Assembly: GCA_008632985.1 (NCBI GenBank) | Contig: QPGO01000040.1 | Coordinates: forward strand, 315,719 to 379,718 | Direction: 5' to 3' | From: Psammoneis japonica | Lineage: Eukaryota | Length of the DNA stretch: 64,000 nt | Shown here: in pieces, positions 1-45,095 of the stretch | Layout of the letters: the number at the start of each line of letters is the position of its first letter | Position numbering within the stretch: position 1 is the stretch's first letter | Notes under the pieces: generated by a model | Told to the model about the DNA's origin: nothing | Seen by the model: the letters and a program-made list of their open reading frames with translations, nothing else | The model's database searches: none | Translations under genes and position numbers: made by a program

Positions 1-3000
1 AAGGGTGAGAGCAAGCTTCTTGAGACAGGACACAAGCGACTTGTTGTCACAATGAATGTCCAATGTCTTGTTCAATCTGGAATGGTGACATGCAACACAT
101 CGGCAGATAAAACGAAGAATGGAAAGGACACCGCAAGCCTCTGCACGGTGCGACGATGGTTCATGCCCGAAACTGGTCCTGCACAATCTACGAGGGGAAC
201 CCCTTGGAGTGTGATCGACCACCCAAAGGCAGCGCCTTCGTTGACAGATCCATCACTTCCCGCGACAAGTGCAGAAGAGTCGAAGTGTTGAACCAAGAGA
301 AGGGGGGAAACATGGAAATCTAGTTCCGCAAACAGCTGAGATTCCCATTGAGGGAGTGATTTCAGCATGTCTTGAAAAGAATCTGGAGCACTCGGTGCGA
401 TTGCAGGGGCCACCGTCGTTCTTGGGATGCTGAATTGCCATCTTCCGTCTTCTGTCGTAGTGACGTCTGCTGGGTGTGATTCATCGGTTGGCGCTGGTGC
501 CACCTCGATCTCTCCAATGGATGCCGCTCTCGTTCCGTCGACCAAGAAGATCTCAAACCCTGACGGGCCCTTGACGTGTGGGCAATTTTCTGAGGAAGAA
601 CAACAAGCTGACGCCTGCATGCGCATCTGCGATGGAGGAACTGGCCAGTCTCCCAGTGGTTCCTTTGAACGAATTGTGGAGGCATGGCACAGGGTTTTGC
701 AAAATTTCTTCCACACTGACCAGGCCCGAGCATTCGGCTTGTGTTGTTCAACATTGTTCAACGCACTCACACTGCTCCGAATCGAGGGGTCACCATTTGC
801 CTTGGTTTCATCCAAATGTGTGCCATCCGCTGGGGTCATGTCGGAGACTGCAAGCACACGAAGGAACAATCGGCAACAATCAATCCATCGGATTTCTCTG
901 TGACTGAACTGTTGTGATCGAAGCACAACATCCACAACAAATTGGTCGTTGTCACGTTGAAGGGGCAGAATGCCATTGTGTGTCAGACAGACTTTGCCCT
1001 TGATTCCATGCAGAAACGAGCGAACTGAAGCGAACCAACACGATTCAAGGTGTGGCAACGGAGTGTCGACGTCCCATGAGAAGCTGTCACCTGTGCCCAA
1101 GTTCAGCTGTGTCCATGCGATTGCGACATGAAACAGTTTGTGAGGTTGATCCTCTCCGAGATGCAGATTCTCGACTCCCCGGGAATGTTTCAGCAATTGC
1201 TGCAATTGGGCCACACCCTGCTCTGCGTCAAGGGATCTAAAACCTCCTCCACCGAGTGCTTGGGGACCGTGTAGAATGAGTCGTTTGGTGTTGCGGTTGT
1301 AACCACATTTGGCAAATGTCACTCTCATCGCCTTCTGCTGAACTTTCTGGAGCTCTTTGTCCTGAAAATTAGAATTCGGCAACANNNNNNNNNNNNNNNN
1401 NNNNNNNNNNNNNNNNNNNNNNNNNNNNNNNNNNNNNNNNNNNNNNNNNNNNNNNNNNNNNNNNNNNNNNNNNNNNNNNNNNNNNNNNNNNNNNNNNNNN
1501 NNNNNNNNNNNNNNNNNNNNNNNNNNNNNNNNNNNNNNNNNNNNNNNNNNNNNNNNNNNNNNNNNNNNNNNNNNNNNNNNNNNNNNNNNNNNNNNNNNNN
1601 NNNNNNNNNNNNNNNNNNNNNNNNNNNNNNNNNNNNNNNNNNNNNNNNNNNNNNNNNNNNNNNNNNNNNNNNNNNNNNNNNNNNNNNNNNNNNNNNNNNN
1701 NNNNNNNNNNNNNNNNNNNNNNNNNNNNNNNNNNNNNNNNNNNNNNNNNNNNNNATCTTGTTTCAAGGCATGGGACAATTCGAACGCTGTTGGTTGGGGG
1801 CCAGTCCTAAACTCGTTGACCTGTTTGGAAGTGTCATCGACGTAGCCTCTGTTGTGTGCTCTAATGAAGAACTTCCCATCTGGAGTCTCGAAAAAGGACC
1901 CGATCGCATTGGCGTCAAAAATGTCAAACAAACGACTGCACAGGGTGTTCCAGCACCAAGGAGAGTTGCCGCTCCCTTGTCCTGTTCCGTAAAGAGGGTG
2001 CTGAGAAGAGTGTGAGTAACTGCGCTGCGCAAGACCCAGCAGTGTGCGAAGCCAGTGTCGAGCATGGTGCAGAGTTGACACATTCACTTCCACCACGGAT
2101 GAAGACATGCCGTCACTTCGTGAACACAATCCCACAATGGACGGAATGTTCCGATTGCAGCAGGAGGTGCAGTCGTCGTCGCTGGTCAGTGACGTCTTGC
2201 GGGATGCTCGGGTCATTTCCAACATCAAATTTTCTGAGAACACTGGCGTTTGAGCTGACAGGAAAGACCGACAACCACAGATTCCCGGATCACACATGCG
2301 ATGGTTCTCCACATGCTGAGCTAGCTCTTGCCATTTGATGCTTGTAACAATTTGAAAGTCTGCCTTGCCAGATGTGCATCACATGCAATCTGTGTGTTTT
2401 GTTGTTCCCAGGTTCTTTGAAGATCACAACGTTGACGATGTCCTTCCATCGGTCACAAGAATGACCCCATTTCAGAGCGCAGTTGATCAAGTGAAGGCGA
2501 ATCTTGAAGAGAGTCTGTTGGATCTGGTCGAGAGATTCTTTCCGGGAGGATGGATTCCCCTCTTTGTCAGTGTCCTTGGCAAAGGAGTGGGGGGCGTGTG
2601 ATGCCTTCCAGTGTCCCAAGTGCAACCCTGACTTGACAGACGTTGAAGTCGATTCAGACCATGACTTTAATTTCAAGAGAAGAGATTCTGCTGAGATAGA
2701 GTTCTGAACTGCGGGAGGAGTGCGGCGACGAAGGTGTTGAATNNNNNNNNNNNNNNNNNNNNNNNNNNNNNNNNNNNNNNNNNNNNNNNNNNNNNNNNNN
2801 NNNNNNNNNNNNNNNNNNNNNNNNNNNNNNNNNNNNNNNNNNNNNNNNNNNNNNNNNNNNNNNNNNNNNNNNNNNNNNNNNNNNNNNNNNNNNNNNNNNN
2901 NNNNNNNNNNNNNNNNNNNNNNNNNNNNNNNNNNNNNNNNNNNNNNNNNNNNNNNNNNNNNNNNNNNNNNNNNNNNNNNNNNNNNNNNNNNNNNNNNNNN

Positions 3001-6000
3001 NNNNNNNNNNNNNNNNNNNNNNNNNNNNNNNNNNNNNNNNNNNNNNNNNNNNNNNNNNNNNNNNNNNNNNNNNNNNNNNNNNNNNNNNNNNNNNNNNNNN
3101 NNNNNNNNNNNNNNNNNNNNNNNNNNNNNNNNNNNNNNNNNNNNNNNNNNNNNNNNNNNNNNNNNNNNNNNNNNNNNNNNNNNNNNNNNNNNNNNNNNNN
3201 NNNNNNNNNNNNNNNNNNNNNNNNNNNNNNNNNNNNNNNNNNNNNNNNNNNNNNNNNNNNNNNNNNNNNNNNNNNNNNNNNNNNNNNNNNNNNNNNNNNN
3301 NNNNNNNNNNNNNNNNNNNNNNNNNNNNNNNNNNNNNNNNNNNNNNNNNNNNNNNNNNNNNNNNNNNNNNNNNNNNNNNNNNNNNNNNNNNNNNNNNNNN
3401 NNNNNNNNNNNNNNNNNNNNNNNNNNNNNNNNNNNNNNNNNNNNNNNNNNNNNNNNNNNNNNNNNNNNNNNNNNNNNNNNNNNNNNNNNNNNNNNNNNNN
3501 NNNNNNNNNNNNNNNNNNNNNNNNNNNNNNNNNNNNNNNNNNNNNNNNNNNNNNNNNNNNNNNNNNNNNNNNNNNNNNNNNNNNNNNNNNNNNNNNNNNN
3601 NNNNNNNNNNNNNNNNNNNNNNNNNNNNNNNNNNNNNNNNNNNNNNNNNNNNNNNNNNNNNNNNNNNNNNNNNNNNNNNNNNNNNNNNNNNNNNNNNNNN
3701 NACCCACTTCGGCGCACGGAAGCCAAGGCTCCTGGAGTGGCAAGAACGTAGTCCAGTCTTCGTGAGCCTCGAACGCATGTGGAAAAATCAAGGTCTTCGT
3801 GATGGTGGTGCATGACATCGGACATGTTAAAGCGTTGGGCCATGGTGGCTAATGAATCAGAGTCATGCTGGAAATCAGCATTGAAATCACCGAACAAAAT
3901 GACGTCTCGGTCAGGTTCATCCAAGAATCATTCCAGGATCCGAGCAAGATCATAGCAGAAAGCTCGCCGCGGGTCCGGATTTGCACACCCTTGTTGTCGA
4001 AGGAGGGCCACCTGTTGAGCGCAAGCAGCAGTTTTTCCAGCAACTGAAGAAGAGTCAGAGCAAACTCTGCAACATGACATGAACACAACCTGCCGACCCT
4101 GTCTGCCGTCAAAAATTTGAACTGACCAACGTCCCAGAGGGTCTTCTTGTTGGGTGCGGCACCGAGCCGACAAAGCATTGCATGACATCAAAGCAGCACC
4201 TCCTGGTTTGTACGGGGTGGCGAAGGATGCAGAGGAGGAGGAGCACGCAAGTCTGCCGTGATGCAGGGACTGTTTGACCGTTGCCGTGCAGCTGCTGCGG
4301 ACTTGAAATTGAGTTGTGTCGAGGCAAATCTCAGATGTGCCGACCACGTCAGCTTGGATTTCCGTGGCCACCTGCGTGTGATCGTTAAAATCGCCGCCGC
4401 ATGAATCAAATGAACAACCATTGGCATTAAATGCGTGCAATCGTGTGTGGTCTTGATGTTTCGGGATGAGCAAGTCGCCGACGGGATCATTGGATGACAA
4501 TGTAGAATGGTCAATTGTGCCATTGGGTGGGGTGTAAGTTCGTCCTGATGACAAATGGCGCCACTGTTGTGCGGCGGGGTTCTCTGCATTAGAAGGGGTG
4601 TCACCCCTCATGGTGTTGCCGTGCTCCTTCGAAGGGAGACTTTGGTTGAGACTGATGTCTGCGTCATAGAAGAAAGGCAGGTGAGACGACTGGGCCTGCC
4701 TTAGAGAAAATTTGTAAAGGATGAATCGTTGGGCTCAGATTCGAGCATGGATGCATCGTCAGGAGGCTCTTTGTCGGAATTCCCAGGGGCAGAAACGGCG
4801 GCACGCTTGTGCTGCGGTGATGCAGGAGGGGGTTGCACANNNNNNNNNNNNNNNNNNNNNNNNNNNNNNNNNNNNNNNNNNNNNNNNNNNNNNNNNNNNN
4901 NNNNNNNNNNNNNNNNNNNNNNNNNNNNNNNNNNNNNNNNNNNNNNNNNNNNNNNNNNNNNNNNNNNNNNNNNNNNNNNNNNNNNNNNNNNNNNNNNNNN
5001 NNNNNNNNNNNNNNNNNNNNNNNNNNNNNNNNNNNNNNNNNNNNNNNNNNNNNNNNNNNNNNNNNNNNNNNNNNNNNNNNNNNNNNNNNNNNNNNNNNNN
5101 NNNNNNNNNNNNNNNNNNNNNNNNNNNNNNNNNNNNNNNNNNNNNNNNNNNNNNNNNNNNNNNNNNNNNNNNNNNNNNNNNNNNNNNNNNNNNNNNNNNN
5201 NNNNNNNNNNNNNNNNNNNNNNNNNNNNNNNNNNNNNNNNNNNNNNNNNNNNNNNNNNNNNNNNNNNNNNNNNNNNNNNNNNNNNNNNNNNNNNNNNNNN
5301 NNNNNNNNNNNNNNNNNNNNNNNNNNNNNNNNNNNNNNNNNNNNNNNNNNNNNNNNNNNNNNNNNNNNNNNNNNNNNNNNNNNNNNNNNNNNNNNNNNNN
5401 NNNNNNNNNNNNNNNNNNNNNNNNNNNNNNNNNNNNNNNNNNNNNNNNNNNNNNNNNNNNNNNNNNNNNNNNNNNNNNNNNNNNNNNNNNNNNNNNNNNN
5501 NNNNNNNNNNNNNNNNNNNNNNNNNNNNNNNNNNNNNNNNNNNNNNNNNNNNNNNNNNNNNNNNNNNNNNNNNNNNNNNNNNNNNNNNNNNNNNNNNNNN
5601 NNNNNNNNNNNNNNNNNNNNNNNNNNNNNNNNNNNNNNNNNNNNNNNNNNNNNNNNNNNNNNNNNNNNNNNNNNNNNNNNNNNNNNNNNNNNNNNNNNNN
5701 NNNNNNNNNNNNNNNNNNNNNNNNNNNNNNNNNNNNNNNNNNNNNNNNNNNNNNNNNNNNNNNNNNNNNNNNNNNNNNNNNNNNNNNNNNNATGCTTTGG
5801 GAGAAAATCCATGAGCAGAGCCACACGGGAGAGGTCCACGGCAGTCTCGTCCCATTGATGAAGTTGGACAAAAATCCCATCATCTTTGAGGACTTTGTTG
5901 ACAAAAGGAATGTTCCTAATGTCGGACAACATGAGGGAAGTGCGAATGCGGTGAGCGATGACAAACGTGGCAGGACGACGGCGGGAGCCACCAACTCGGT

Positions 6001-6700: not shown

Positions 6701-7379
6701 AAGATTTCAGTTCATCACACACAATTGTGTGTGCTCTTGGTTCCGCATGCAGTGTGCAGTGCAGTTTGCTTTTTAGCCATTTGGCTCACAAGAACAACAA
6801 CAGCAGCACCAACATCATGACAACAGTCTTTTGGCTCCTGCAACGGTCTCTGCACGAAGACTCATCTGCCATTTAGACAGCAGCAAGGAGTCGTTGTTTT
6901 CTTCCACCCAGTCATCTTCATTTTCTGTCACAGCCACGTCTGTGTGGCTTTTGTGCCAAAACCTGGACTTCTGATCCTGTTGTGACCACCCCATCAATGG
7001 AGTTGTCCTTTTCATTTGTGCTTGATGCTCCTGCTGCATGGGATGCAAAATGATGCATGACAGAGATGTGATGGTTGACCCAGCCAAGTGAGCTTCTGTT
7101 GTCTGTCACTGGGGAAAGCATGTTGACAGAGTGCTGACCTCTGCTTTAGAAATTTGCAAGAACAGTGTGATGTGATTCATTGTCTCTTTCATTCAGGTTG
7201 TCACTGCACCAGCATTGGCTAAATTTCTAGATGCTGCTGTGTGGCTGCTTCATCTGAACTGCTTGGCACAATCAAGAAAGTTTTGCATTTTCCATGAGGG
7301 GCAGTCTTGGTGGCAGCACCAATCAACACACCATGTTCTTCAGTGAGAACCTCTTGACATGTGCAGTCTGCATGTTTTC

Positions 7380-9000
7380 CAAAGCCCATCAAGGTGTCTC
7401 CTTCATCTTCACCCTCTCAACAATTTTCACTTCTTCACCAGCATCCTTTGTCTTCCTCTTCCACAGCACCTCATTTGCATGCCTGCCATCCTGTGCTGTC
7501 CTCTTCTTCCTCTTGAATGCTGTCATGTTCTTCACCACCACTGCCCAGCTCCAGAGAAAATTGACCCCCAAACCGGTTTTCAATCTCCTTGATGCAAGCT
7601 TTGACCTGTGCCAGCTCATCTTGTTGCCCTTGTCTGTCCAACAAATCATGCTCAACATGTTCCTTGATGCTGCTGATCTCCACAGAATCATCCACATTGC
7701 TGCCAGAAGAGTTGACAGCACTGTGTTTGTCACAAGAAGCTGAGTTGGGATTTCCCAAATCTCATTCTCCACATTTCATGAATTTGCAAAGTTTTTGGGT
7801 GCCTGTGAAATGTTGTGATTGTCCCAGCAGAGCAGCCCATGTGCCCCAAGCCTCTCATGTTGTGACTTCTGTTCTCATGTTGTTGAGTCAGTCCATCTTC
7901 TTTTTTGACATGAAATTTTTGAAACAAATCTTTGAGAAAGTTGTCTGGTTTGATGTTGTGATCTTCACAAAGGTGATCCTTCACCTCCGCAACCTTCAGA
8001 AAACGCATGGCAGATGCTTTCTTCACAGTCCCCCCATCAAGAGACCCAAGGACTTCAATCGGTCCATGTTGAAAGTCTCCAACTTCAATGTGCTGGCCTG
8101 TGCTGTTGCTGGAATTGATGCATCCATGCACCATGACATGGCATGCAGGACAGCAATGGAGCCCTCTTTGACAAAGAAAGTTGCTTTTTTGTGGTGTGTC
8201 TTGCTTTCCTGTGTGCAAGCTTGGGGAATCTGTTTTCATTCTTCCACTGTTTTTGTGACAATCATTGTTGGGTCATCTGATTTCAGCTGACCGTTCTCAT
8301 TGTCATCAGCACCCAGAAGCTCATTGTCACCTTGGTCATCATCATTGCTGTCCTTGTCATGCAAGGTCAGCATGCCATCCAAGCCAGGGTGTGTTTCAGT
8401 GGACTTCATTTTTTGCACACCACAGTGCCTTTCATGTCCCATTGCTGGAGGCTTGCAATTGTTCTCTTCATTGCTGTCTTGAAGCTCATTGTCACTGCCA
8501 ACCTTGAGGCCTGCACGTGAAACCATGTGATCCTCTTCTTCATTGGTGTTTTCAGACTCACTGTCACTTTCAAATTTTGGAGTGCACTTTGCATGTGAAG
8601 GCTTGCAATCCTCCTCTTCATTGGCATCTAGAAGCTCATTTTCATCTTGACTTTTGTCATCCCTGTCCAATCCTTCTCTTTTTTGCTGTCTTGAAGCTCA
8701 TTTTCAATTGCAAACTTGAGCACCCGCTTGGCATGTGGAGGCTTGTTCTTGAGGTTCTGCACTCTGTTGTCTGTGTCCTCATCATCAATCACCCTCCATC
8801 TGCTTGTTCCTGGAGCAACTTTCCTTGCCAGCCTTGTGGAATGGTGAGGTGCAGTGGTTGTTGACAAGCGCATTGCTTTCTTAACTTCCTCTTTGGAGTC
8901 ATTGTTTGAAAATGCCCCTGGTGGACCATCAGAGGACTCTGTGGAATTGTCATTGTCTGAGGGAGCACAGTCTCTGTCGCCACTGTCTCTCCACTCCTCT
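7380..9000 (-). pseudogene. Degenerate acidic ORF of unknown function with repeated [DE]NEL[LQ][DG] motifs, probably TE-associated
   Basis: Frameshifted ORF fragments. GAAGCTCATT recurs at ~8317, 8481, 8631 and 8692. TA and CG are almost absent. Confidence 0.3.
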
Positions 9001-12000
9001 TTGATTTCCTGCAATGCAGTGAAGAAATCTTTGCCTGAATGTTTTCTTTTTTGTGGCACACTGTGTCTCAAGCAGTCAAAACAGAAGTGCATGATGCACA
9101 GGAAATGGATTTCACCAGACATTGCACAGCTCAAGGGCGTTTTTTTCATTTCAAGGGAGCAATGACGTCATGATCATCATGTCAGATTCTAGCCAAACCG
9201 GGTGAAACATCACATGTGACATCACGATGCAAGGTCAGATTTTGCTCTGTTCCATCACACATTGTCATTGTTTTGTTCTGTTGTTTGTTTTTGCACACAA
9301 CACTTGCTTGTGCCTCTTCTTTTGTGATGTCTCACTCTCTCAACACGTTTGAGCACATGTCAATCCACTTTTGCCAACATTCCATGGTTTGTGATGATGT
9401 CTCTTCCCACCCCTGGCATTCTGTTTGCCCAAACATTCAAAAGTCAGGGTCTGCCAGAACGGCAGGTGTCCACAATGTTTGAAGGTCTTGACAAACCTCA
9501 GCTCCACAAGAAGCCACCTGATTCCCCTCCTCCAACAGCTGAAGAAATCATTGATTTCCTGCAGAATGTGCGCGACAGTCCTCCTTTGTTGCCGGCAGAA
9601 ACCGCCGCTCTCAAGACCAAGGACGCATGTGGGTCATGTCATTTTGTCAAGCAGTGCAACAACTTGGAGCCATGATTGGGCATGCAAGCAAGGACATTGT
9701 CTGGATTGCCTGGTGGAAGGTGAAAAGGTGTGGCTGACAATGCACTTTTGCAATTCGTGCAAACAAGGGACTGTCTGCAACATGCATTGTGGTGTTCATG
9801 GCTTGTGCAAGGTGCAGGTGGGTGCAAGGAAATTGAAGTGTTGACTGAAATTCATTCATTCTGTGGACATTTTACAAGCCAGTCAATGCAACATGCTGCG
9901 TGCATGAATTGCAAAAGGGGCACAGACCTTGCCCTTGATTCAGCATTGATGGATTGCAGCTCAGTGCACAGCACATCATCTGCACAAGCTCACTTTTTGT
10001 TCTTTGCAAATGTGACCTCATTGCTTGTCACTCACAGACAACAGAGACGAATGCATGAAAAGACACACACAGTGAAATCTGACTTTATGAGGGTGATGCA
10101 CTGGCGGTGCTCCAACAACCAATGAGCTGCAAAGTGCGTGCATGCAAAGGTGCAGACACAAACACACATTTTAAAAATTGTGCAACCTTTTCATTGAGAG
10201 GCATCTTGACAGTTTGAAAATGGGTTCATTGAAACTGTCAGTTTCCAAATGTGGCAATCACACCACACAACGATGATTTTTCCAGAGTGCACAGAACACA
10301 ACTGAAGAAGTTTTGAAAAAATGACACCAAAGGGAGATGGACAGCCGAGCAACAAGATGCAACAAACACAAACAACACCAGTTTTCAAGAGCACGTTGGG
10401 AACATTTCCATTGCACCCAAAAGAAATGACAAGATGAGTCTGGCAAACACAGCAACGGCTCTCTGCAATGTCGCAAGCTCATTTGGAGGGAACACCGGCA
10501 ACGGCAAAGGCAGAAACAAGATTCGCTGGATGCATTGTGATGAAACAAAAGACAAAAGTGCTGCTGTCCTGTTTCGCCATGATGACATGCAAAGCCAGGC
10601 AGCATCAAAAGATCACATCACACATCTCATCAAGAAACACCATGGAGCCAACTCCAGCAAGGTGTCCAATGAGACCACCTGGGATTCCTTCAAGAAAAAG
10701 CACGGCTCTTGCATGAAGGACATGAAGAAGGATGCCATTGACAGCATCAAGGCAGAGCTGCTGGCCATGTCTGTGGCTTGTGGCATGAGAGACAACAAGA
10801 CCAAGCTCCAAGTTTCCAAAACATGGCAAAGTGGGTGGCCAAGAGACCAATGTGGAAAGGATGGAGTGCTGCCTTCCACATCCTCCATGACAGCTGGGAC
10901 ATGCACTCCAATTGGTCATCAAACATGGAGGAGGCCATTTGGAGGAAGCGTGGTTTCAAGCACTCTGATGGCTTTGTTCCTTGCAAGAAGAAGCACGGTT
11001 GTGGTGTGAGAATTGTTGCTGCGGAAAAAACATGCAAGATCAGGGAACTGAGCAATTCTCTGAAAACACACTGTTGTGGGAACCACCCAACCATCAAAAA
11101 CAGTGCCAAATGGTTGGACGTGAACCTGGACAGGAGGGCATCTGCAGTTTTTCACTTCAAGCAGATGGCCATCAAGTTGCAAAAGCATGTTTCAAGGTTG
11201 CCAAGAGAGCTCAACACAAACTGCTCCATTCTGGAGAACATGCCTTGTCGCAAGGACAGTGGCGTCAACTTCAGATGGTTTGAGACAATCACATTTGGGG
11301 CTGACACAGCAAGAGAGATTAAGGAGGTGTTCAGCTTTGGCTGTGGCAGATCAAGACTGCAGATTGCTGGTGAAGAGATGTGTCCATCTTGCCAGGAGTT
11401 GACAACATGCCAAGATTCAAGTGCCTGCAAGAGAGCAAGTCATCCCACCAATGACAACTGGGTGGCAAGCTGAGACTTGAACACACTGCACGGTCCTGCC
11501 AATGCGACAAACAAGGGCACCACCACAATGGAGGGGGCTGGACACCAAGAATCAATTGCCGTTCCAACAATGATCAACGATGACGAGGGCAACTGGTGGG
11601 AACATGAGACAGGATCGTTTGTTGAGGGAGTGGATGAGGTGGGTGACTGGGCAACAGACCAAGGTTTGGAGACAGCATGGACATCAGAAAAGGCAGGTGT
11701 TGAAGGTGCAGCAGACCAAGATGAAAACACAGAAGGAACAGAGAAGGAAGTTTGACACCAGGCTTTGCTCCAAAACAGAGAACTGGAAAGCAGGCAGGCA
11801 GAGATGCATCACAACATTCAAAAATTGAGTGTGCCATGTGTGTGTCTTGTCTTGTCTTGTCATGTCATTCTCTGACCAGAATTCAAACAATTTCCCCAGG
11901 CAACAAAGATGGCAAGGGCAGAATTGATGAGGGCTGCACGGGAAAAGAAAAATGCGGTGGAAGGCAAAGTGACAAATGAAAGGAGCGACTCAAAAAAAAC

Positions 12001-22307: not shown

Positions 22308-22453
22308 TTTTTTTCCAAATAAAAATAAACTCACGACTGGCCTACGTATTCATGGTGGATGGCAGACAGACGGCGGTGCGTCCACTTTTTCAAAGTCCCA
22401 ACAACCCATTCCCCCGCGATCTTGTTGACTGCTGTGTCCCTTATTTGATCGCG

Positions 22454-34199: not shown

Positions 34200-37100
34200 C
34201 AACCCTTTTTCCTTTGTCGTTGTCTTTGCGACCACTGTCTCAAATTGAAGAGTTTTGAAGCAAAGGTTCTACGATGCACGCAACATCTTCCCACTGGTTT
34301 CTTGATTCTCCGTGACAACATTTCACTGTGCGCCCCAGAAAAAAATCATGATTGCGACCACTGGCTTCACACATTGTTTGGGACCTGCAACAAGGCTTCT
34401 GTTTGCATCAACTTTTTGGAGAATTTTCTTGCGCTTGGTCACCACGAGACAGCCAAGGACGAAGACCCTGTCTCGTTCCCTGTTTGTGTCAAGACGCTCT
34501 TCTGCACTCATGACACCTCCTGGGAAGAGCCTCTCAGGATGGCAATGATGGACATCAAACGTGAACAAATGTGTGCTCGTCATGTCAATGCTCAGCTCTT
34601 GAAGTGTGTGAAAAACAACAATGTTGTTTCCACTGCCAACGATTCTGGCAAAAGCAAATGTGGACGTGATCATTTTGAATCAATGCAAGTCAGTGCAATC
34701 CTGAAAAGGTTGGCAATGCAGTTCCCTTTGCAATGAAAAACGCCAAGAAACAAAAATTTCAGAAAGGCAAGATTGCAACACAACGCCGTGACTCCTTTGG
34801 TTTCTCATTGTTCTTTTTACCTTGTCCCTGTTCCTCTGCTTCTCCTCCTCCTCAGACTCCCTTTGCTCCACTGGCACCAGTCTCAGTGTGCCAAATGATG
34901 GCGCAACTTTTGACACATCTCCAGGTGAAATGCAGTCACTCCAAGACATTCCAACTCTAGAGGAACAAATCACTGATTCTCGCAAATTGTGGCCATCGCT
35001 CAGTGCGATTGCTTCCTTGCCTCCTCCCTTGCCTGAAAATTTCACAAAGGAGGAGCTTGAAGATGTTTTTTCCGGAGCCCTGCCTCTCCACTTGCAATTC
35101 CTGGCGACATGCAGAAACAGCATTCTCACCTTGTTGCATTTGAGGAAACTCCCATTTCTGGTGGCTTTCAAGGGGAATTGTGTGCAGCACCAGCTGTTTC
35201 ACAGCAGCTCTGGTTTTTGCTTGGCAAACGACATTTGGAAGTTTCTGCATGGTTTTGAAAATGGCCAGGCTCCCAAGAATCCAATGACCGAATCTGTGGT
35301 TGCAATTGCCCACCCTGCCCAGTCATCCTCTCATGTTTCAGAGGTGATCACTTGTCTTTGTTGCACAGACAAGATGTCTCAGAAATGCTTCTTTGGATTG
35401 AGATTCAGTGTTGCGTCAATCCTCTGCACCGTTTTGGAACACGGAGAGGCAAACAAGAAATGTGATGGAGCAGAATGCCAGCTGTGCTGTTGGATCCGGT
35501 TTGGTTGTTGCGGCCAGAACTGCAACATTGCTGACAGTGACTCAGCACTTGCAGGGCTGATGCACAAGCCTGGTGCAATCTGCTGAAAGGATGATTGGTC
35601 CAAGCTTCCAAAAAATGTTCAGTTGATGATGGCTTCAATGTTGGATGCCATGCAACTCTGTGATGATGAAATCCATGCGGCTGCTTTGAGGCAAATGCGC
35701 TCCTTCAACGACCCTGCACCAGACAGTCTTTTTGCAGCTTCACTTCAAGAAATGATTGGAGCAGAGCACTTGCAATGTGAGAACATTGAAATGCAAGCAA
35801 AGTGCACATCATTCTCTGCCCCAAGAGTTGAGACACGGAAAACCAAGCTCCACAGGGACAAGGAAGGTTGTGACAAGGAGGGACACACCAAGACAAGTGC
35901 TGGTCCCTCAAGCTTGTCGCTGCTGGATGAGCAAAAGCCAGCATTTGTGTTGAATCCTTGCATGGTTGCGCCAACTTTCGATCATGCCTCAAATGTCATT
36001 TTGCAAAACTTGATCTTTCCCATGCCGCAGAAAAGTTGCAACGCTGTGGCCCTTGTCGTCCTCCCTCTGGCAAGCCAAGTCACTTGAACATTGAAGATTT
36101 TTTCCTTGACCAACATTGTTCCTGGGTCAACAAGGACATTGGAAAAAACAACGAGCCATCAGAGAAGGGAAAGCATCCAGCTGTTGTTGTTCCAAGGATC
36201 CATCGTCCATTTGCAGTTGTGCGTGATTTAAATTTTCACTTGGTGCAACAGCGCCAATCAAAAATGTCCATGTTGTCGGTGTTTTGCAACTGCATTTGTC
36301 ACTCTGTGGTTGGTGGTTGGCAGACTGGATTCTCCTGTTTTTGCTGCTTGTGGTGCAACACCGATGGACAAACCCACCCTTTTGAGGCTGGTGATTGGGT
36401 CCTTCATTGTTTCCAAGAAGCTGCAAGGACATTCAGCAGCATTGTGGGTGACCGCAACAACCAACGTTGGCAGACACCAGGTCTGCACTTTGAAGATGTG
36501 TTTGTGTCAGAGTGTGGCACAAAACTGAATGGCTTGATGGACTTGATTGTCGCTGGTGCAGTTGACGCAATTGACTGGATCAACAAAAATGTTGGAAAGT
36601 CATCTTTTCATCATGAGGCAATTGAGGACAAGTTCAAAAGCATGGCTTCAACATGGGAAAGCAAAGGCGCAGACTGTGGAGAGTTCCGGCTCATGACCGC
36701 CATTCAGCTGTTGTCGCTGTGCTGTGTTGGAATCAAGCCTCACCCTGACTTGCGCAATCTGGTGTGTCCCGCAGCAAAGTTGGGGGGTGCAAAGCAGATG
36801 GATGAAATGAAGGCCCCCAATGATCAGCGGGGCACACTTTTGGGATGGATGTTGGCCAATTTCGATGTTGCCCACTTTTGCAAGAATGGTCCAGAGTGTT
36901 TGCTCTGCAAGCTTGGCACAGCTCAGGAGAAAATGGGTGTCTGCAATGTCTTTTGTTGTGGGCAGCATCTTTTTCTGTTGTTCTCTGATGGTCAATCAAT
37001 GATCAAGAAATTTGGAACATGCACTTGGGAGCCTGTGTTGTTTGTCTCCATTGACAAAGTCCAAGTTGAACTCCAACGGCAAGACGATGAAGAGAATCCA

Positions 37101-37300
37101 CAGCTGTTGTTTTGCCTCGCGTTGACCGTCATTGTCCCAACATGTTTTTTCAATCGATTGCAACCAAAACAGGAAGGCAGCTGCTGTGGACATGTTGTGG
37201 TTGGCTTCCAACTGGATTGGAAACTCTTTGGAAGCATCTGTCAACTCGTTGATGGACAGTGATGGAGATGGTGATGCGGTGGCTTTTAGCAACAATGATG
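34200..37300 (+). pseudogene. Large degenerate accessory ORF(s) of the 9.1 kb element, function unknown
   Basis: Collinear long ORF fragments 34822-35586, 35623-36087 and 35958-37262, all Tyr-free. Confidence 0.4.
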
Positions 37301-38271
37301 CCACTGATGTTCAAATGAAGCCAGCACCAACAAAAAGTGCTGTTGTTGCAAATCAGTGACTTGTTTGGAGGGTGACCAAGTCATGAAGCAAGTTGCCATC
37401 TTGTGCGTCATGCGACATCCATGCCAGACTGACCGCACCTTTCTGACCACACCTTTCTGCTCCAACATAAATCTAGATGCCCAAACAATGTGCTTTGGTT
37501 GGCAACAACACGTCCGGTCAATGCAAGGAATCTGTCATGTGCTGAACTGTGCTCAGCCAAGGGGGTGGCATTGGTTTCCTCTGATCAACACCAAAGAGAC
37601 AAGGCGTGCGCAATGGCATTTGAGGAATTCAGTGCGATGTTGACAGTCGCATTTACACTGTTTCAATCCAAGATGGTCACAAAGACCTTCATCACAACTG
37701 CAGCGCATGTTCTCGTGATTTTGTGCATCAAGTCAAGGATCACTTTAGCATGGTGGTCGATTTCGAGCATCGCAGTTTCAATCAAATCATGTTGGACTGC
37801 TGCTGGATGCCAGATGGAGAGTGGTGTGATGCTCATTTTGGAAGCAGTCAGTTCTTCTGAAATCTCATTGAACTGCAAAGCACACTCTCTGAGAAGGTGG
37901 GGGACGCGTTGACAGTGATTCCTTTTACTCAGGCCATGTTGAGCCAACTGCAAAGACACTGGATGGAACTGCATGCTGCGTTCCAACTTTGCACCATGGA
38001 TGCCGATCAGGCAAAACAAAGTTTGAGTCTTTTCCAAGCAAGTGACCTTGTTGGCTGCAACAAACAGGAACTGTGGTTGGGGAAACCGTCGGATCAGGAA
38101 GATGCACACCTGGGATTGTCCGAGCAACATCTCCTCACGTGCACACCAGAAGTGAGCCGCACTTGATGACATGGAATGTGTCAAGTTCCTGGCATTTGGA
38201 AGGAAATTGTAGACGACAATCGTTGATGCCTTCAATGTGCACAAGTCTCACGAACAATGGTGTTGGTTGCG

Positions 38272-40604
38272 TTAAAAAAGATCTGGCCAAATGGCCCTTC
38301 TGTCTTGCACCACCCAAATGTGTCTCATTTTTTCTTGTGTTTCCACTGCTCCTGGTTCTTCTTCATGCACCATTGCATTGTCTCTCATGGCCTCTGTGGG
38401 GACCACATGCAGATGAGGTGAGAAGACTGTTTTCTTGGGAGATGAAAGCCAGTGGTTTCTCTTTTGATCTAACAGCCAGCGACTGACCAGGTTTGTGTGC
38501 TGCAAACGTTGCCTCATGCTCCTCACGTCGGATTGATGAGTGCATGGATGGACCACGGCAAAAAGTGATCCTGCATCCTCTTGTTCAAAAAAACACAGCA
38601 AATGGGAGGGAAATTGTTGTTCACCTTGTCGGGTGCCAAAGGCAATGCAGGCAAAGTCGCACCATGGTCCTTCGCTGTTGCAGTCTGGGTGTGCATGGCA
38701 CACATCCTTTCCATTCTTGTTGCAAAACTCTGTCCTGCACAAGAGTGACAAATCATCATCACCTTGACCCACACATTCCTCCCATTTCTCTGACATGAAA
38801 TTGAGCAACACAGGATGAACCTGGCATTGACTCTGTGCACCATTCCATTCCCATCTCACAGCACCTGTCACTTGGCTGCAAGTGAGAGCAAACGTGCTTC
38901 CTCCCAGCTTGTGGTTTTCCACAACATTGGAGTCCTTTTCCATTTGTTTTGTTTTAGGCAAGATCCAGCCATTGGCAGAGATGGCAAGGTTCAGCTGCAT
39001 TTGATCCTTCATCCATGACACTGCCTGCTTTAAGAAGGTGTCTGGGCTCCGTTGTTGAGCGGTTGACAAGGGAAGCTTGAAAAAATCCTTCAGGAGGCAT
39101 TCAACCAACCCTGCATCAAAATTCATTGCGCGGTGACTGTGGTGAAGAAACACACAAAGATGGAGTGTTTCATTTGGCTTCTGAAGCTTCCACCCACAAC
39201 CATTGCTTCTTGGAACAAAATGAACCATCCTGGCAATGAGAAGGCAAATTTTCTTGTTTGTCTTTTGCATCAACCGTCTTGGAGTTTTGCGAGTGATGGG
39301 TGGGTTGCCATGTCTGTGCCATGCATGAAATGCAAGAAGATCCTCCAGCAACTGCATGAACAGCTGTGCACTGCAGTTGAGTTGTTTTCCCTTGTAATTT
39401 TTTTTCTTTTGGTTTCCTTGCTCATCCTCATCATCATTCTCACCCCCAGGAAGACATCCAACAGGTTTCCAGATGCTCTTGTCAGACCATTTGTCAAAGG
39501 CTGCGTGACCGGAGGTCATGATTGCAGGTTCACCACAATGGGATCCCACCCCCGCTGTCCGACCTGTTTTGTCGACGCAAATGATGTTGCTCTCGAGAAA
39601 TTCTTTCTCTGGATCTGTGGTCCGCTCTTTGCTGGTGTGCCTGTGCCACTCTCCAGCCAAACACACTTGTCGCCCGGTCCCTTGGCCTTGCACTTTCCAA
39701 AAGGGTTGTCTGGATTGGCCATGTTCTCTCTGCTGCACCACAGGTGAGGGTCAAGTGAAAACTGCTCCCAGACTCCAACAAAATTCCACCTGGGCACTGA
39801 CACACATTGTGGCAAACCGGTTTTGCCACTGGTTGTCTCTAGCATCACAGGTGCAGACTTGCTGGGTGGCAGAGGGAAGTGCATTGTCAAGGTGCACATC
39901 AACTCTTTTCTACGTGGAAGAATTGTGCCAAGCACTGTGGTCTTGTTCCCAGTGTGCCGCTTGATGAACTCAACAATGCAGTCGTACAATTCCAGGGGGG
40001 CACCATGTGTGTCCATGAGCTTCTTGCACAACTCTGCACATGCCCCATCAAGATTGGTCAAAGAGGGAGCGGAAGCCAAGGCATCTCCTGCTGGTTCAAT
40101 GTGCCTGTCACCCAATCGATCATCAGGAATTTCATCTGGTTGCGCAGATTCCTCCATTGTCATGTCCAACAAGGCAGAGAAGGAGTGACCACTGCCAAGA
40201 TCCAAATCGTTCATGGCAACAACATCACAAATGCTGTGATCAGATGACATGGACGACAAGTCATCCACACCATGTGGTGTGTCTGGAGATGGGAACAAGG
40301 GGCTGCTGGGATGGGTGCTGTCTGCAGAGCGGGGTGCCAACCTGCTACGAGCAGATTGCTGGAGATGGAATTCTTCATTGTCAGAGGATGAACCAGAAAA
40401 ATCTCCAGTTGAAGGAGCGTTGCAACTTTCACTGGGTGGCCCGCCTGTTGAAGATGGAATGTTGCTGTCATCACGAACTGTTTGATTGGCTTGCAACTCT
40501 TGGGCAGTGGAGTGACACCCAGGTTCACACCTCCAATGCACAGCAATTCTCAAAAGGTTTTTGCCACAGCCAGGACAGAGGATCGGGTTCCCTTCCATTG
40601 ACAA
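38272..40604 (-). pseudogene. Plavaka-like transposase pseudogene (internally deleted and frameshifted)
   Basis: IICVDKTG...GEPAIMT; FHAW; PRSNGCGWKLQK..ETLH...NFDAG..E..LKDFFK.P..TAQQR; HAHPDC.SEGPWCDFA (compare YRAHPNY...GPWYD). Family assigned from remembered motifs. Confidence 0.7.
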
Positions 40605-41069
40605 TCAAACAACATTGAGACGGTTGTCATTCACTGAGAATCATCATCCTGGCATTGTTGTGGTGAGAGAAAGTGGAACAAGACACAAAAAATGGCTTGA
40701 AAATTGCAACACTGCAATCCATTTTAGATTTGAGTGATTCTTGTGGGCATGACATGTTTGCATTTTGGATTGTGTCATCTTGATCTAACAATGGACATCA
40801 ACTTTTGCGAATGCTGTCAATGGACAGAACATCATTTCCGTTCAAATGATGTGACCACAACAACAAAAACACAAGTTTTGCAATTCATTGTTGCATGCAA
40901 ACATGTTTTCAAACTTTGATGTTGCTTGCAATGATGCACTCATTGTTTGAGAGGAACAAATTCCAAGACTCAAAAAAAAAGAAATGCTGGCTGTTGCTCA
41001 ACACGACCCAAATGACAGTTGCAGATCTCCGCGGCACACAAACAACTCATTGTTGCAGTGGAAAGAGCA

Positions 41070-42335
41070 AGATGTCATCTAGAGAGCAGCCAGCAGCAAA
41101 GAAGAGGAGGACAACAGAGCCTGTGGCCATGAGCCCAAGGCTTCAGGCAGCATTGAAGCAAGCAGGTGCACAGGCAGTGCATGATGCAATGAGACATGAA
41201 GTCAAGAAGGTGGCTGCAAATGAACTCTTTGCACACAAGTTGAGTTCGCAAGTGCATCAGAAATGGCAAGCAATGGGAACATCTCACTGTTTGTCAAGAA
41301 GAACATTGCTGGTGGCAACATGGACACCACAAATTGGTCAGGAGCTTGGGAGGAATGGGCAAGGAAGGCGGCAAACAGGCAAATTGACAACAAAAGAAAC
41401 ACCGTGTGTTCGGAAATCAGCAAGGATGCAAAGGCATGTGAGTGAAGTGATGCGCGTGTGTGAGTCAAGAGGTGCGTGCATCTCAAAAGAAGAGGATGGT
41501 GGCTCTTTATCTTTGCAGGCATTGTCACCCAAGAAGAGGGAAAGGAAAAAGAAAAGAGGCTCAAGACAGCAGCCACAAGGAGGAGGGGTGCCAGAGGAAG
41601 GAAGAAAAGTGCGAGTCAAGACGAAGAAATCCCGCATGTGCTGACTTGGGATGGATTTAGCCTGTTGAAAACAACCGGCAAAAACAGAAGAACAAGCAGG
41701 CATGCAAGTGGTTCTATGATCACATCCTCTGTCACACCAAGAGCAAGAAGGCATGGAGCAGCATCATCAAAACAGGAGAGGTCAAGGCGACTGAGCTGGC
41801 TGCAATTGCTGACGAAGCTGTGGCACTCTTGGCGATTGAAAATTGTTGGAGTGTGCAGGCACACCAAAAGAAAAAGGAGATGGCAAAGGAAGTGGGTGAG
41901 GAAATGGACCAACAAGAAAAGGTGCCCAAGCCTCTCTGCACAAAGCCAAAGAGTCAGCACAAGTCTTGGGGAGAGAAAGGAATCGCGCACTTCAACGAGT
42001 TCTGCAAAGAGGTGATGAAAGACAGAAACTCCAAGGATGGTCAGGAGTTTGACAGGTGGCATGCAGAGCTCAAGAAGAACAAGTGTGACAAGTCAGGAGG
42101 AGAAAAGAAGAAGAAGAAGAAGAAGAAGAAGAAGAAGAAAGCCCCAAGCAAGGGTCTGGAAAGGTGGAGGCAATGAACATCCTCACATTGGACAGCAGCG
42201 ACAAGAAGAGTGGAGACAACAGGCAGGATGAAGGAAGGAAGGATGCCACGGATGCCAGAACAGAGCAGCAAGCAGAGGAACAAGCGTCGGAAGAGGAAGA
42301 CTTGTCGGAACTTGGAGATGATGGCAATGACTCTT
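41070..42335 (+). pseudogene. Degenerate accessory ORF divergent from the transposase
   Basis: ADEAVALLAIENCW...PLCTK...SWGEKGIAHFNEFCKEVMKDR...EFD. Includes a (GAA)n tract at ~42,105-42,140. Confidence 0.5.
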
Positions 42336-42725
42336 AGAAGGAAAATGCATCAATGGCTTTGTTCAACGTAAGAGCAACCAAATGTTCATGGTTGAAAACA
42401 GCAGTTGACAGAAAAACATTGGGTTGCTGCATCACAAATGCAGTGGGCAATTGTCGTGACAGTGGAAAGCATTTCTCTTTCAAACAGCATGTTTGCAAAA
42501 TTCGGTGAATGAACCCTGCCACAAAATTGTGATGTTTTGTTGGAACATGGTGATCAGGTGAATTTTTCAGCAATGTGAAACCATTGAAGGAGGAACAACT
42601 AATTTGTTGAAAAAATTGTCAATGGCCAAGTTTGTTGTGGCTGATTTTTAACAATTTGTCACAACACATTGCAAAAATGTCACTGTGTAAATCTGCACAT
42701 TGTTGCAATGTCAAGCCCTCTGATG

Positions 42726-43385
42726 TGCCTCCACCATGTCAAATGGACCACCCTTGACTCACAGCTCACAGCAACCAAACCATCCACAGCTTCTGCTTTG
42801 TTGCATTTCTCTCAAAAAGAATGCCAGTTCCAACTGGTGCCATGCATGGTGGAAACTGTTTCATTCAAAGCAGTTGCATCACATCCATCAGCACCTGAGT
42901 GGCCCCTCTTGCACTTCTCATTGGGAGACTCACAATGTCCAGCAGTTTTGTTTTGTCTTCAAGTCCATCTTGTGCTCCTTTTTCTGCTTGCTTTGAACTG
43001 CTGTGATGACAAAAGCCCTGTTGCATGTTTTCCTCTGCAGCTGTGCTTCTTCCACAGCCATTTCTGCCTGTTTCTCACATTTCTGTTTTTCTTGTTCAGT
43101 GGCTGGCACCTGGCACACTTCTGATTCATGGCTTCTGCACTTCTCTTTTTGATGAAGCAAGAGAGCAGAGAGTCAAATCTGCAGCTTTGTTGGAAGCTTC
43201 AAGCTGTGTGGCAATGAAACAACCAGATGTTCTCATTGCCACTCCATGCTTGTTGCCTGTCTTCACAAAGCACAACATTTGATTGTGGGGGTCACATTGT
43301 TCAGCCACCATTTGTTGAATGCTCCCCCAAGCTGGAGCTGCTGAGTTGCTTCTTTCTGCATGGTGATCCACTGTTTGACACCGCC
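42726..43385 (-). pseudogene. FG-GAP membrane-protein pseudogene, piece 3 (5' end and upstream), paralog of 47,254-47,910
   Basis: cctccaccatgtcaaatggaccacccttgactca / cctccactgcgccgaacggaccgcccttgactca; ttgggagactcacaatgtccag is identical; EKQKCEKQAEMAVEEAQLQR vs EKQKSEKQAETTMEKAQLRR. Confidence 0.9.
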
Positions 43386-45095
43386 CAATGATCCATGATG
43401 TTGTGTCCAGCGCTGGCAGTTGCAAGGAGAACTGCGATGGAAGTCTGTCTGTGCAAAACAGTTTTTGCGCACACTTTTGCACTTTTGTCCGTTCCTGTTG
43501 AGGATGTGAGCAGGAAACTCAAAACTGCGCTGAAGTGGTGATGGGGTCAGCACCTCTGGAAGAAGGTGCAACATCTCCTGCACCTGGTGAAACATCTTCT
43601 GGCAACAGCTGGAAGAAAGTCCACCACACAGGAAATGGAAAAGACCTCACATGCCAAAGTTCTAGAAGCAAAACTCCCACAACTCTTTTGTGGAAACCTG
43701 AAAGTGGTTGAAAGATCACTTGAGCATGTTGTCTGTTGCTTCTTGCATGGACTTTTGCTTTGTGGGCAGGGTTGGAAGTTGCTGGATTCACTGTTTTAAC
43801 ACCCTGCCACTTCCAGCCAGATCCAAAATGCAAACACCCAGCACAGTGGGAACCATTGGATGCTTCTTGACAGGATGGACGGACAAACCAAACTCTGCTG
43901 CTGGAGCAGCTGCCTGGCAGCAGCAGCTAGCAGCTGGAGAGCACCATCCACCAAGAGCAACAAAGTTCATTTCCTTCAAGAGGAGAATGCCCAATTGGCA
44001 TTGGGAGGTTGGCAGATGGCCATGCTGTCATTTGTTGGACCCCTGCCAAGACGAATGACCTTGCCATGAAAAGATTTCGTGTCTGTGTGTTCAAAACCCT
44101 TAAATCAGGTGAGTGAACGTTTTCGGTGGAGCCTAAAATTCTGTTGTTGAATCTATGAATCACTGGCAACAATCCAGTGTGTGCAATTTATTTTTTCAGT
44201 CCTTTGTTTCATGTCTCTCTTGTCCTCACACTGCTGTGAAATTTGTTGGGCAAAGAAGCAAAACACGACACAAAAGGGAGCAAAAGCTCTTGTTCATTGG
44301 TTGTTTTCTGTGAACGAAAACAACTGCAGGCACAAATGAAATGCATGTGTTGGGATGAATGATGACTTTGAACACGTGTAAAAGATTGCAAACTTAATTT
44401 AATCAACAGAGCGCAGAAAGCAAGTTACAAAGAGTTGGTTGCAATCGTTTTCAACGCACCTGACTGTGTTTTGTGATTGGATGTAAGAACAGAGGTTCAC
44501 CAAAGATCACTGGCTGTGGAGAAGGACAACACTTTTTCATTGACCATGAATCCGGTTGCACAAGATGACCGATTGTTGGCCCGCTTGCCAAACGATTGCT
44601 GGTAAAAATTCGAGGAGCTGATGCACATGACGGACGAAGCAAAAGAACAAATTGCAGCATCAAAACATGATGCAGCCAGCGACGAGCTTGACCGATTGTT
44701 GGTGCAATCGACAAGCTCTGAAGGGAGTGTAGATTCCAACGTGGATTGGGAGATGTGGTTCAAGGAAGGGAGGAGGGAACACATAGATGACCCGCACCTC
44801 CGCCGTGACTGCATGGACATGTTTCACATGTTGCAACTTGCAACACTCCAGTGAATGGAGTTCGAATGATGATGAGGACCTCAAGGACCCACCGCTGTAC
44901 TGTATCGTCACTCTAGCTCGCCGTTCCATTCCACTCAAACCCATGCTTCCTCTAAGAACACTGAAACGCGACAGTCCGTGTTGCTCCTGTCTTGCTTTCA
45001 GCGATCTTTCCCGACGGGCTCTTCAAACGCAACAATGGCGACACACCAATGCGTTGATTTGAATAAAAAGGCGGTGACAATAATATGATGAATTT

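Follow-up and report, generated by a model that had tools for sequence, protein, structure and literature searches.

TA-poor blocks and gene blocks of the window

We analyzed a 64,000-base stretch of the genome of the diatom Psammoneis japonica (GenBank assembly GCA_008632985.1, contig QPGO01000040.1, positions 315,719 to 379,718 of the forward strand), here called the window, in which the dinucleotide TpA (TA) is nearly absent from non-genic DNA. A first-pass annotation, made from the sequence alone, had proposed a genome-defense system that turns TpA into TpG or CpA within transposons and pseudogenes. Dinucleotide observed/expected ratios (o/e), counted per kilobase and per block over non-N bases, divided the window into six alternating blocks, three of them TA-poor and three TA-normal between or beside these. 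TA-poor block A (1-21941) contains N gaps at 1385-1754, 2743-3701, and 4840-5791, and per-kilobase values are unreliable in the bins with these gaps (1-6 kb). It is followed by a TA-normal island carrying a Crinkler/kinase-like gene (21991-25727, + strand), by TA-poor block C (25728-44378), by a TA-normal gene block with Pfam matches (44379-56809, - strand), by TA-poor block E (56810-60561), and by a TA-normal block with leucine-rich repeat (LRR) genes (60562-64000; LRR Pfam matches at 61030-62312).

The pooled TA-poor DNA (42,112 non-N bases) contained 196 TA, compared to about 2,795 expected (o/e 0.07), i.e., about 93% of the expected TA was missing over 42 kb, while the pooled gene blocks (19,607 bases) contained 801, compared to about 1,356 expected (o/e 0.59). 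TG and CA both reached an o/e of 1.69 in the TA-poor blocks versus 1.17 and 1.20, respectively, in the gene blocks, CG stood at 0.45 versus 0.91, and the remaining twelve dinucleotides differed little. This bears out the near absence of TA and the abundance of TG and CA that the first-pass annotation had reported for DNA it took to be repeat derived. The three TA-poor blocks were alike in this respect, with 83 TA versus about 1,302 expected in block A (o/e 0.064; CG, 0.40; TG, 1.72; CA, 1.71; computed for 1-21990), 96 versus about 1,269 in block C (0.076; CG, 0.44; TG, 1.66; CA, 1.69), and 17 versus about 224 in block E (0.076; CG, 0.67). TA o/e was 0.56 in the island (CG, 0.90), 0.60 in the block at 44379-56809 (CG, 0.91), and 0.58 in the LRR block.

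Per kilobase, TA o/e was 0.00 to 0.15 for most bins of 1-22, 26-44, and 57-60 kb, the highest values among TA-poor bins being up to 0.21 (28-29 and 32-33 kb). It was 0.30 to 0.84 at 22-25, 45-57, and 60-64 kb, in agreement with the normal TA content reported earlier for the genes at 22-24.8, 45-57, and 60.6-64 kb. The longest runs without TA measured 1,735, 1,672, and 1,420 bases. Exact positions also confirmed two counts made by eye, namely, about four TA in 1-1200 with none in about 460-1235 (the first TA lie at 108, 189, 321, and 458 and the next at 1238) and none in about 7,230-8,625 (there is no TA between 7228 and 8629). Block boundaries were sharp, the transition taking place within tens of bases. 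At the left edge of the island, no TA occurred over 20572-21990 and 26 occurred in the following 260 bases; at the right edge of block E (60389-60562), none occurred over 59610-60388, followed by one per 10 to 15 bases from 60562 on. The depleted domain had been placed at 1-44500. Its end lies near the true edge (about 44,379), yet this placement misses the TA-poor block at 56,810-60,561, the third of the window.

Direction and context of the substitutions

Comparison of the window with itself (blastn) gave 11 self-matches, and the substitution spectrum was built on four pseudogene pieces in TA-poor DNA, all on the - strand and 68 to 74% identical to intact copies in the window, the intact copy being taken as a proxy for the ancestor in the pairwise counts. 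Three are mutated pieces of FG-GAP genes, located 2 to 26 kb from the tandem FG-GAP pair: 19742-20295 (blastn, 19768-20278 against 45793-46337, 70%; tblastn, E=1.7e-25), 32783-33612 (32818-33612 against 46421-47244, 71.5%; E=2e-26), and 42776-43381 (42783-43381 against 47343-47907, 68%; E=1.6e-10). The fourth, 58627-59042, is a piece of the gene at 62868-63998 (58627-59029 against 62868-63300, 73.5%; E=1.4e-10). Pairs of intact copies were excluded from the spectrum and used as a control; the matches 56594-57259/59067-59724 and 31879-32076/58320-58517 as well as tandem and inverted short repeats were left out.

Only 2 of the 71 TA of the intact copies were kept in the pseudogene pieces, while 31 had become CA and 23 had become TG, so that 54 of the 69 changed TA ended as TG or CA. 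CG was lost as well (9 of 112 kept, 43 to TG and 40 to CA), and the other fourteen dinucleotides were retained at 49 to 86%, CA at 156 of 181 sites. Together, TA and CG changes made up 143 of the 449 substitutions over 2,201 columns. When a second intact paralogue served as an outgroup (two triple alignments), none of 10 ancestral TA was kept, 5 having turned into CA and 2 into TG, and none of 13 ancestral CG was kept (8 CA, 4 TG). After collapsing strands, A>G was found at 57 of 141 A preceded by T (0.40), compared to 37 of 329 after A (0.11), 31 of 315 after C (0.10), and 20 of 300 after G (0.07). This corresponds to a four- to sixfold enrichment at TpA over the other A contexts (odds ratio, 6.6; Fisher p=1.2e-18), contrary to the third concern raised with the original proposal, although background changes in non-T contexts are also present at this divergence of about 30%. 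In the intact-versus-intact control, the same comparison gave 30 of 123 versus 73 of 631 (odds ratio, 2.5). A>C and A>T at TA did not exceed 0.05 to 0.06. TG and CA outcomes showed no significant strand coordination (29 neighbors the same versus 21 different, p=0.30). The changes at TpA are thus directional transitions to TpG or CpA on both strands, as proposed in the first-pass annotation and as seen in the paralogue alignments, the outgroup comparison, and the trinucleotide counts below. The paralogue alignments also contained 12 CA>TG and 12 TG>CA double changes. Since each of these takes two transitions, they suggest either a CG or TA step on the way or an ancestral CG or TA with a different outcome in each copy.

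The loss was equally visible at the protein level. A Harbinger-type (Plant_tran) transposase relic lies at 14780-16157 on the + strand (PF04827, E=1.1e-20 at 14780-16069; a second piece, E=7.5e-4, at 15948-16157). Its open reading frame (ORF) of 430 amino acids, which has 1,987 relatives at E<=0.001, contains no Tyr and 12.1% Cys plus His, compared to medians of 3.4% Tyr and 5.6% Cys plus His among the best 150 of these relatives. Six alignment columns carry Tyr in half or more of 60 relatives, and there the relic reads C, C, C, H, H, and Q. In the pseudogene pieces, ten Tyr from the intact window proteins are likewise matched by Cys (4), His (3), or other residues (3), so that overall none of 16 conserved Tyr was kept and 12 are now Cys or His. 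The earlier claim that every degenerate element had lost its Tyr codons therefore holds where it could be tested, i.e., in the Harbinger-type ORF (0 of 430 residues) and in the pseudogene pieces (0 of 10 kept). Among the best 150 of the 1,987 relatives, we found only one that was free of Tyr, a sequence of 127 amino acids. The survey thus gave no hint of the signature in other genomes, although gene callers rarely predict such copies. A word-seeded protein search gave a single match, a plant protein, for the Harbinger-type ORF and none at E<=0.001 for an intact FG-GAP ORF. A metagenome scan with the Harbinger-type ORF recovered two distant loci (31 to 39% identity; L001, 3001-4868, and L002, 1-2421), neither of which was a further TA-poor instance. 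TA o/e at the two loci was 0.50 and 0.63, and with CpG o/e of 0.08 to 0.44 and TA o/e of 0.33 to 0.54 over the contig stretches named, they represent a contrasting case, CpG decay without TpA decay. Taken together, the pseudogene alignments and the conserved-Tyr columns show that the ancestors carried TA, later turned into TG or CA, and speak against DNA that was TA-free from the start, the second concern raised with the original proposal.

The base following TpA also mattered. Relative to the gene blocks, trinucleotide o/e in the TA-poor blocks was 0.02 for TAT, 0.07 for TAC, 0.16 for TAG, and 0.26 for TAA, and the largest gains were those of TGC (1.72-fold) and TGT (1.52-fold). The 196 remaining TA are of the YTAR type, where Y is a pyrimidine and R is a purine (TTAA, CTAA/TTAG, and CTAG), and none of them lies in ATAT or GTAT/ATAC, compared to 22% of the TA contexts in the gene blocks. 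At 23 of 32 informative paralogue sites, the change lay on the strand that has a pyrimidine after the A (p=0.02). The target motif is hence T-A-Y, or R-T-A on the opposite strand, with depletion in the order TAT>TAC>TAG>TAA.

CpG decay co-occurred with the loss of TA but was separable from it. Over 36 TA-poor kilobase bins, CG o/e ranged from 0.04 to 0.95 while TA o/e was 0.21 or less throughout (r=0.48), and at 20-22, 30-31, and 57-59 kb TA was nearly gone with CG o/e still at 0.6 to 0.95. Since CG o/e varies this widely where TA is uniformly low, the process acting on TA is either faster than cytosine methylation or independent of it. Neither repeat-induced point mutation (RIP) nor 5-methylcytosine (5mC) decay alone can be the cause, as had been argued in the first-pass annotation, because TpA is lost rather than gained and the CG loss is separable.

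Affected DNA, spared DNA, and read support

The stretch was found in three public runs of one sample, probably the sample behind the window itself. Contigs of one read set, X1 (assembled from k-mers, k=31; platform not on record), were compared over 7001-27000. At a word depth of about 60, they reproduced the TA-poor sequence in pieces of 0.9 to 5.1 kb with 2 to 21 differing letters each, covering 7001-13511 and 14708-21730 of block A at 99.5 to 99.8% identity, and a single contig (25265-26830) crossed the block edge at 25727. The TA-free sequence is thus carried by contigs of a public run, which answers the worry that it reflects base calling over modified DNA. Such an artifact is unlikely also because the N gaps have individual sizes (370, 959, and 952), suggesting a paired-read or short-read scaffold rather than a long-read assembly. 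The agreement with X1 amounts to read-level support that is less than fully independent. Mismatches between X1 and the window numbered 68 in 15,124 bases of TA-poor DNA (0.45%; 7001-21730 and 25265-26830) versus 0 in 2,664 bases of the gene at 22249-24912 (p=2.4e-5), and transitions accounted for 106 of 121 differing places in the run tally. Among the 40 best-supported of 122 differences, 16 were CG versus TG/CA and 6 were TA versus TG/CA, although the 12.4 kb behind these 40 contains only 167 CG and 43 TA. For these 40, the rates per site were similar, 6 per about 48 TA sites and 16 per about 181 CG sites. Provided that the differences are real, TA and CpG sites are about equally unstable there, a sign of recent activity.

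Scans with Pfam covered 215 stop-to-stop ORFs of at least 90 amino acids and 150 of the 185 ORFs of 60 to 89 amino acids. In TA-poor DNA, matches were limited to Plant_tran, to an N-terminal fragment of an FAD-dependent oxidoreductase (DAO; 20728-21087, - strand; PF01266, E=7e-8), and to a zf-MYND ORF inside block E (57581-58117). The DAO fragment is compatible with G3PDH but not specific for it. No long interspersed nuclear element (LINE), Copia, or Plavaka domain was recovered in the scanned ORFs, although such domains may be masked by heavy mutation. The 365 scanned ORFs also gave no match to reverse transcriptase, and no viral genes were seen in TA-poor DNA. The Pfam scans also found no adenine deaminase (HxE...PCxxC) among the window ORFs. 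Of the elements named in the first-pass annotation, the Harbinger element and the FG-GAP pseudogenes could consequently be retained, while the LINE, Copia, and Plavaka-like elements were unconfirmed by Pfam and the G3PDH pseudogene was compatible with the data but not specifically supported. After Pfam and the four pseudogene pieces, the bulk of the 42 kb of TA-poor DNA stays unclassified. On both strands of the TA-poor blocks, the loss of TAA and TAG has left abundant overlapping stop-to-stop ORFs of 150 to 490 amino acids. A strong A/T skew was observed at 8000-14000, with a sign flip near 10 kb (-0.18 to +0.25), and again at 40-42 kb (+0.20); the skews at 8000-14000 and 40000-42000 hint at A-rich elements in opposite orientations that are past recognition by Pfam.

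The TA-poor DNA is mostly single copy (k=31 word depth of about 60, as in the genes), except at 13.0-15.0 kb and 21.7-22.3 kb. The first exception, 13004-15004, is a TA-poor high-copy repeat (X1 word depth, 270 to 1,132 versus about 60) with a TA o/e of 0.10 overall and a CG o/e of 0.5 to 0.8; at 13671-14337, TA stands at 0.07 and CG at 0.80. Since independent saturation would have scattered the TG and CA choices and thereby broken the shared 31-mers, the repeat at 13.7-14.3 kb probably multiplied after its TA was lost, its family consensus likely being TA-poor, and the 13004-15004 repeat may be an element that escaped from the process. The second exception includes a high-copy element resembling a miniature inverted-repeat transposable element (MITE) at 21942-22296. 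Its 36-nucleotide inverted arms (21942-21977 and 22261-22296) are 83% complementary and 283 bases apart, its X1 word depth is 291 versus about 60 (about fivefold), and contigs break at 21942, 21977, and 22032. Although adjoining a TA-free block, the sequence between its arms has 26 TA in 283 bases (o/e 0.96), and it carries AGTAGATT four times (0.54 expected by chance).

This MITE-like element lies directly upstream of a spliced, expressed gene (22250-24505, + strand) that combines a Crinkler N-terminal domain (Pfam, 22250-22807, E=1.4e-5) with a weak Pkinase match (23093-24508). A contig of a second read set, X2, joins 22759 to 23120 over GT..AG, skipping 22760-23119 and covering 22424-24678, and further X2 contigs extend to 25557. 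Within 7-27 kb, X2 cover amounts to 22.4-25.6 kb, its lack elsewhere being no evidence on expression. Oomycete effectors are the best-known proteins with the Crinkler-kinase architecture, which is found here in a diatom. The gene block at 44379-56809 contains, according to Pfam, tandem FG-GAP repeat genes (45099-47761 and 48230-50561, - strand; about 70% identical DNA), a protein kinase, a PGP phosphatase, and an EMC3-like gene. For the PGP phosphatase exon, the highest-ranking relatives with a name all come from diatoms (61 to 74% identity), including Seminavis, Attheya, Odontella, Thalassiosira, Cylindrotheca, and Cyclostephanos, and by such matches the host genes appear diatom-like.

Because single-copy DNA is affected and a high-copy MITE-like element is spared, repetition, judged by present copy number, appears neither necessary nor sufficient for the loss of TA. 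The confinement claimed in the first-pass annotation therefore stands as far as non-genic blocks with sharp edges are concerned, but targeting of repeats is doubtful in view of the single-copy depth and of the TA-rich MITE-like element. A target of "everything outside active gene blocks" accounts for the pattern better than "repeats" does.

A candidate editing process, its rivals, and related systems

We consider it likely that a targeted editing process converting TpA into TpG or CpA underlies these observations. DNA outside active transcription units would undergo context-specific transitions, the underlying change being A>G on either strand, with the best efficiency where the A precedes a pyrimidine (TAY, or RTA on the opposite strand). 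The process would come near saturation over tens of kilobases, halt within tens of bases of gene blocks, and treat a transposase relic, pieces of host genes, and unclassifiable DNA alike, while ordinary CpG>TpG/CpA decay would go on alongside it as a separable process. The direction, context, and block limits of the changes are shown by the data above, and from these we infer that an enzyme is at work and that its target is silent chromatin, not repetition itself. The process might plausibly serve to disable mobile or foreign DNA. The likeliest single mechanism, although one we would put forward only tentatively, is a TadA/ADAT2-like adenine deaminase acting on DNA, with inosine read as G. The tRNA target of TadA/ADAT2 is U33-A34. 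Its 5' T agrees with the context found here, and TAC is reduced to 0.07 of normal, but TAT is lower still, at 0.02.

Several observations weigh against this explanation or its parts. The preference for TAT over TAC does not match the ACG listed for TadA/ADAT2 in Table 1 of PMC10661471. Deaminases typically attack single strands processively, and the strand coordination that this would leave was not seen. The high-copy MITE-like element retains its TA, the high-copy TA-poor repeat at 13.7-14.3 kb probably spread when it was already TA-poor, and the affected host pseudogene pieces and unclassifiable DNA suit a by-product of chromatin as well as they suit defense. The spectrum rests on 54 pairwise and 7 outgroup-polarized TA events at about 30% divergence, the intact copy being only a proxy for the ancestor in the pairwise counts. 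Finally, X1 shares its sample with the window and its platform is unrecorded, and mismatches between the two may reflect allelic or strain variation or errors in the consensus.

The most serious alternative, which we regard as distinctly less probable than the editing process but not negligible, is that TpA decays as a by-product of a silencing mark on its T or A, for instance, thymine hydroxylation by a TET/JBP enzyme followed by occasional mispairing; the oxidized thymine 5-formyluracil mispairs with G. An A>G change at TAY on one strand is a T>C change at RTA on the other, so that all of the counts suit both chemistries equally. Whole-block loss, co-location with CpG decay, the missing strand coordination, and the similar per-site X1 difference rates of TA and CG would all be in keeping with such a mark. 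There is also a precedent within the stramenopile-alveolate-rhizarian (SAR) lineage, since dinoflagellate 5-hydroxymethyluracil (5hmU), made by a TET/JBP homologue, is described in PMC11572971 as transposon enriched and silencing, and older work recounted there found it preferentially in TA and TC. T>C at TpC, i.e., A>G after G, was however the lowest class in our spectrum (20 of 300), unlike this dinoflagellate pattern, and a modified base at diatom TpA is hypothetical. In Bigelowiella natans, moreover, hypermutation at TpA was confined to 11 of 15 lines (preprint 10.64898/2026.01.13.699255), which to us resembles a process that is turned on in some lines more than a constitutive one. A broader form of the same idea is that diatoms and chlorarachniophytes, and perhaps SAR generally, use TpA as a second "epigenetic" dinucleotide. 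Silent chromatin would bear a heritable enzymatic mark on this self-complementary step, either a hydroxylated thymine as in dinoflagellates or a modified adenine, and the decay would be the mutational shadow of the mark, as CpG decay is that of 5mC. This strikes us as similarly improbable. If it were true, the mark would pass over transposons that are already TA-free, such as the repeat at 13.7-14.3 kb, and these could spread freely.

The remaining rivals are far less probable. RNA editing of A to I at UA with insertion of reverse-transcribed copies, which we think very improbable, would account for the 5' T, a 5' U/T preference being common to ADAR-type editing (PMC10661471, Table 1), but it fits poorly with uniform depletion over contiguous blocks of mixed content and with edges at gene blocks instead of element ends. 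Both strands are about equally affected (31 CA versus 23 TG), TAG is among the less affected contexts although UAG is listed for ADAR in the same table, and reverse transcriptase is lacking among the scanned ORFs. Equally improbable is error-prone patch resynthesis in heterochromatin by an enzyme of the DNA polymerase eta (Pol eta) type, one of the two agents suggested in the first-pass annotation. TA is a known hotspot for A>G by Pol eta, in agreement with the target; the motif of the enzyme is WA>WG (W, A or T), and yet A>G after A stays at background (37 of 329, 0.11, versus 0.40 after T), and A>C and A>T at TA are not raised, so that this candidate is disfavored. Least probable of all is that there was no mutator, the TA deficit being a sequencing or assembly artifact or the DNA having been TA-poor from the start through foreign origin or selection against TA. 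In its favor are the unrecorded platform and shared sample of X1 and the 13.7-14.3 kb repeat, whose copies share 31-mers while being TA-poor and whose source copy was probably TA-poor already. Against it are contigs at a depth of about 60 that reproduce the sequence, one of them across an edge, host-gene paralogues 10 to 25 kb away that keep their TA, transposase relatives with 3.4% Tyr, and two metagenome relatives with ordinary TA.

If the editing process that we favor acts genome-wide, hypermutation at TpA is not peculiar to one chlorarachniophyte. Diatoms, which make up a major part of the phytoplankton and are open to genetic work, would have it too, and at a much later stage. The phenomenon would then no longer be limited to integrated viruses but would take in host pseudogenes and silent DNA of the ordinary kind, and it would be set apart from CpG methylation decay. 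The TAY/RTA motif would be a constraint that any candidate enzyme must meet, and the enzyme could be sought by comparing genomes with and without the signature. Such genomes are also liable to mislead the annotation of repeats and the prediction of genes, as TA-free DNA, without TAA and TAG stops and without Tyr codons, gives long spurious ORFs and gene models that are Tyr-free and rich in Cys and His, while transposon domains are hidden from profile searches, as may have happened with Pfam here.

Among known systems, 5mC decay likewise turns a self-complementary dinucleotide into TG/CA in silenced DNA and is present here too, but it cannot remove TpA and accounts only for the loss of CG. Fungal RIP shares with the process seen here dinucleotide-specific transitions on both strands that wreck non-genic or duplicated DNA and leave sharp compositional blocks. 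It changes C to T at CpA, however, creating TpA, whereas here TpA is destroyed and CA is largely kept, and it is triggered by duplication. The DNA affected here is now mostly at single-copy depth, with one high-copy element spared and one affected, though copy numbers may have differed when the mutations arose. APOBEC3 and ADAR also inactivate invading or repetitive nucleic acid by context-specific editing, in the case of ADAR with a 5' U preference, but APOBEC acts by C>U on retroviral DNA, ADAR works on RNA with a 3' G listed (PMC10661471, Table 1) where a 3' pyrimidine is preferred here, and no strand-coordinated runs were seen here. Dinoflagellate 5hmU resembles the present case in its SAR lineage, its preference for TpA, and its enrichment on and repression of transposons; as described in PMC11572971, it is a modification and not a mutation, and it also prefers TpC, which is not mutable here. 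It is not known in diatoms.

The closest parallel is that of B. natans, in which, according to the main text of a preprint (Mettrop et al., bioRxiv 2026, 10.64898/2026.01.13.699255), 231 of 302 new substitutions in mutation-accumulation lines fell in two regions, one of an integrated giant virus and the other of a virophage. With a single exception, the 231 were A>G/T>C, and every one of these was at TpA, at a rate about 1000-fold over background. The same source reports that clusters and coding sequences poor in TpA and rich in CpA and TpG show an enrichment of reverse transcriptase and DDE domains, and its authors propose an ADAT2-type deaminase. Both systems thus convert TpA into TpG/CpA by A>G/T>C transitions, and both are confined to discrete regions, the remainder being ordinary; those regions are largely silent in B. 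natans and have a TA o/e of 0.06 to 0.08 versus 0.56 to 0.60 here. They differ in host, a rhizarian chlorarachniophyte there and a stramenopile here, and in degree, with an o/e of 0.45 in the nucleocytoplasmic large DNA virus (NCLDV) region compared to near saturation at 0.07. Viral DNA is affected there, and the DNA affected here consists of unclassified sequence, pieces of host pseudogenes, and the relic of a transposase; de novo events were seen there, and the process is deduced here from sequence comparison. Trinucleotide context, a link to CpG, and diatoms are not mentioned in the main text of the preprint. In the full-text literature searched, outside which most subscription journals lie, this preprint was the only report of TpA hypermutation and none concerned diatoms; neither the mutation-rate paper on Phaeodactylum tricornutum, the first for a diatom (PMC6604790), nor the preprint 10.64898/2026.07.24.739820 contains the terms TpA or hypermutation. 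The novelty claimed in the first-pass annotation is therefore limited by the B. natans precedent but, within the literature searched, holds for diatoms. The phenomenon has been described once, in an unrelated alga, and the diatom represents a second lineage; new here are the diatom case itself, its saturation, the partial uncoupling from CpG decay, and the TAY motif, for which the main text of the B. natans preprint gives no such context analysis.

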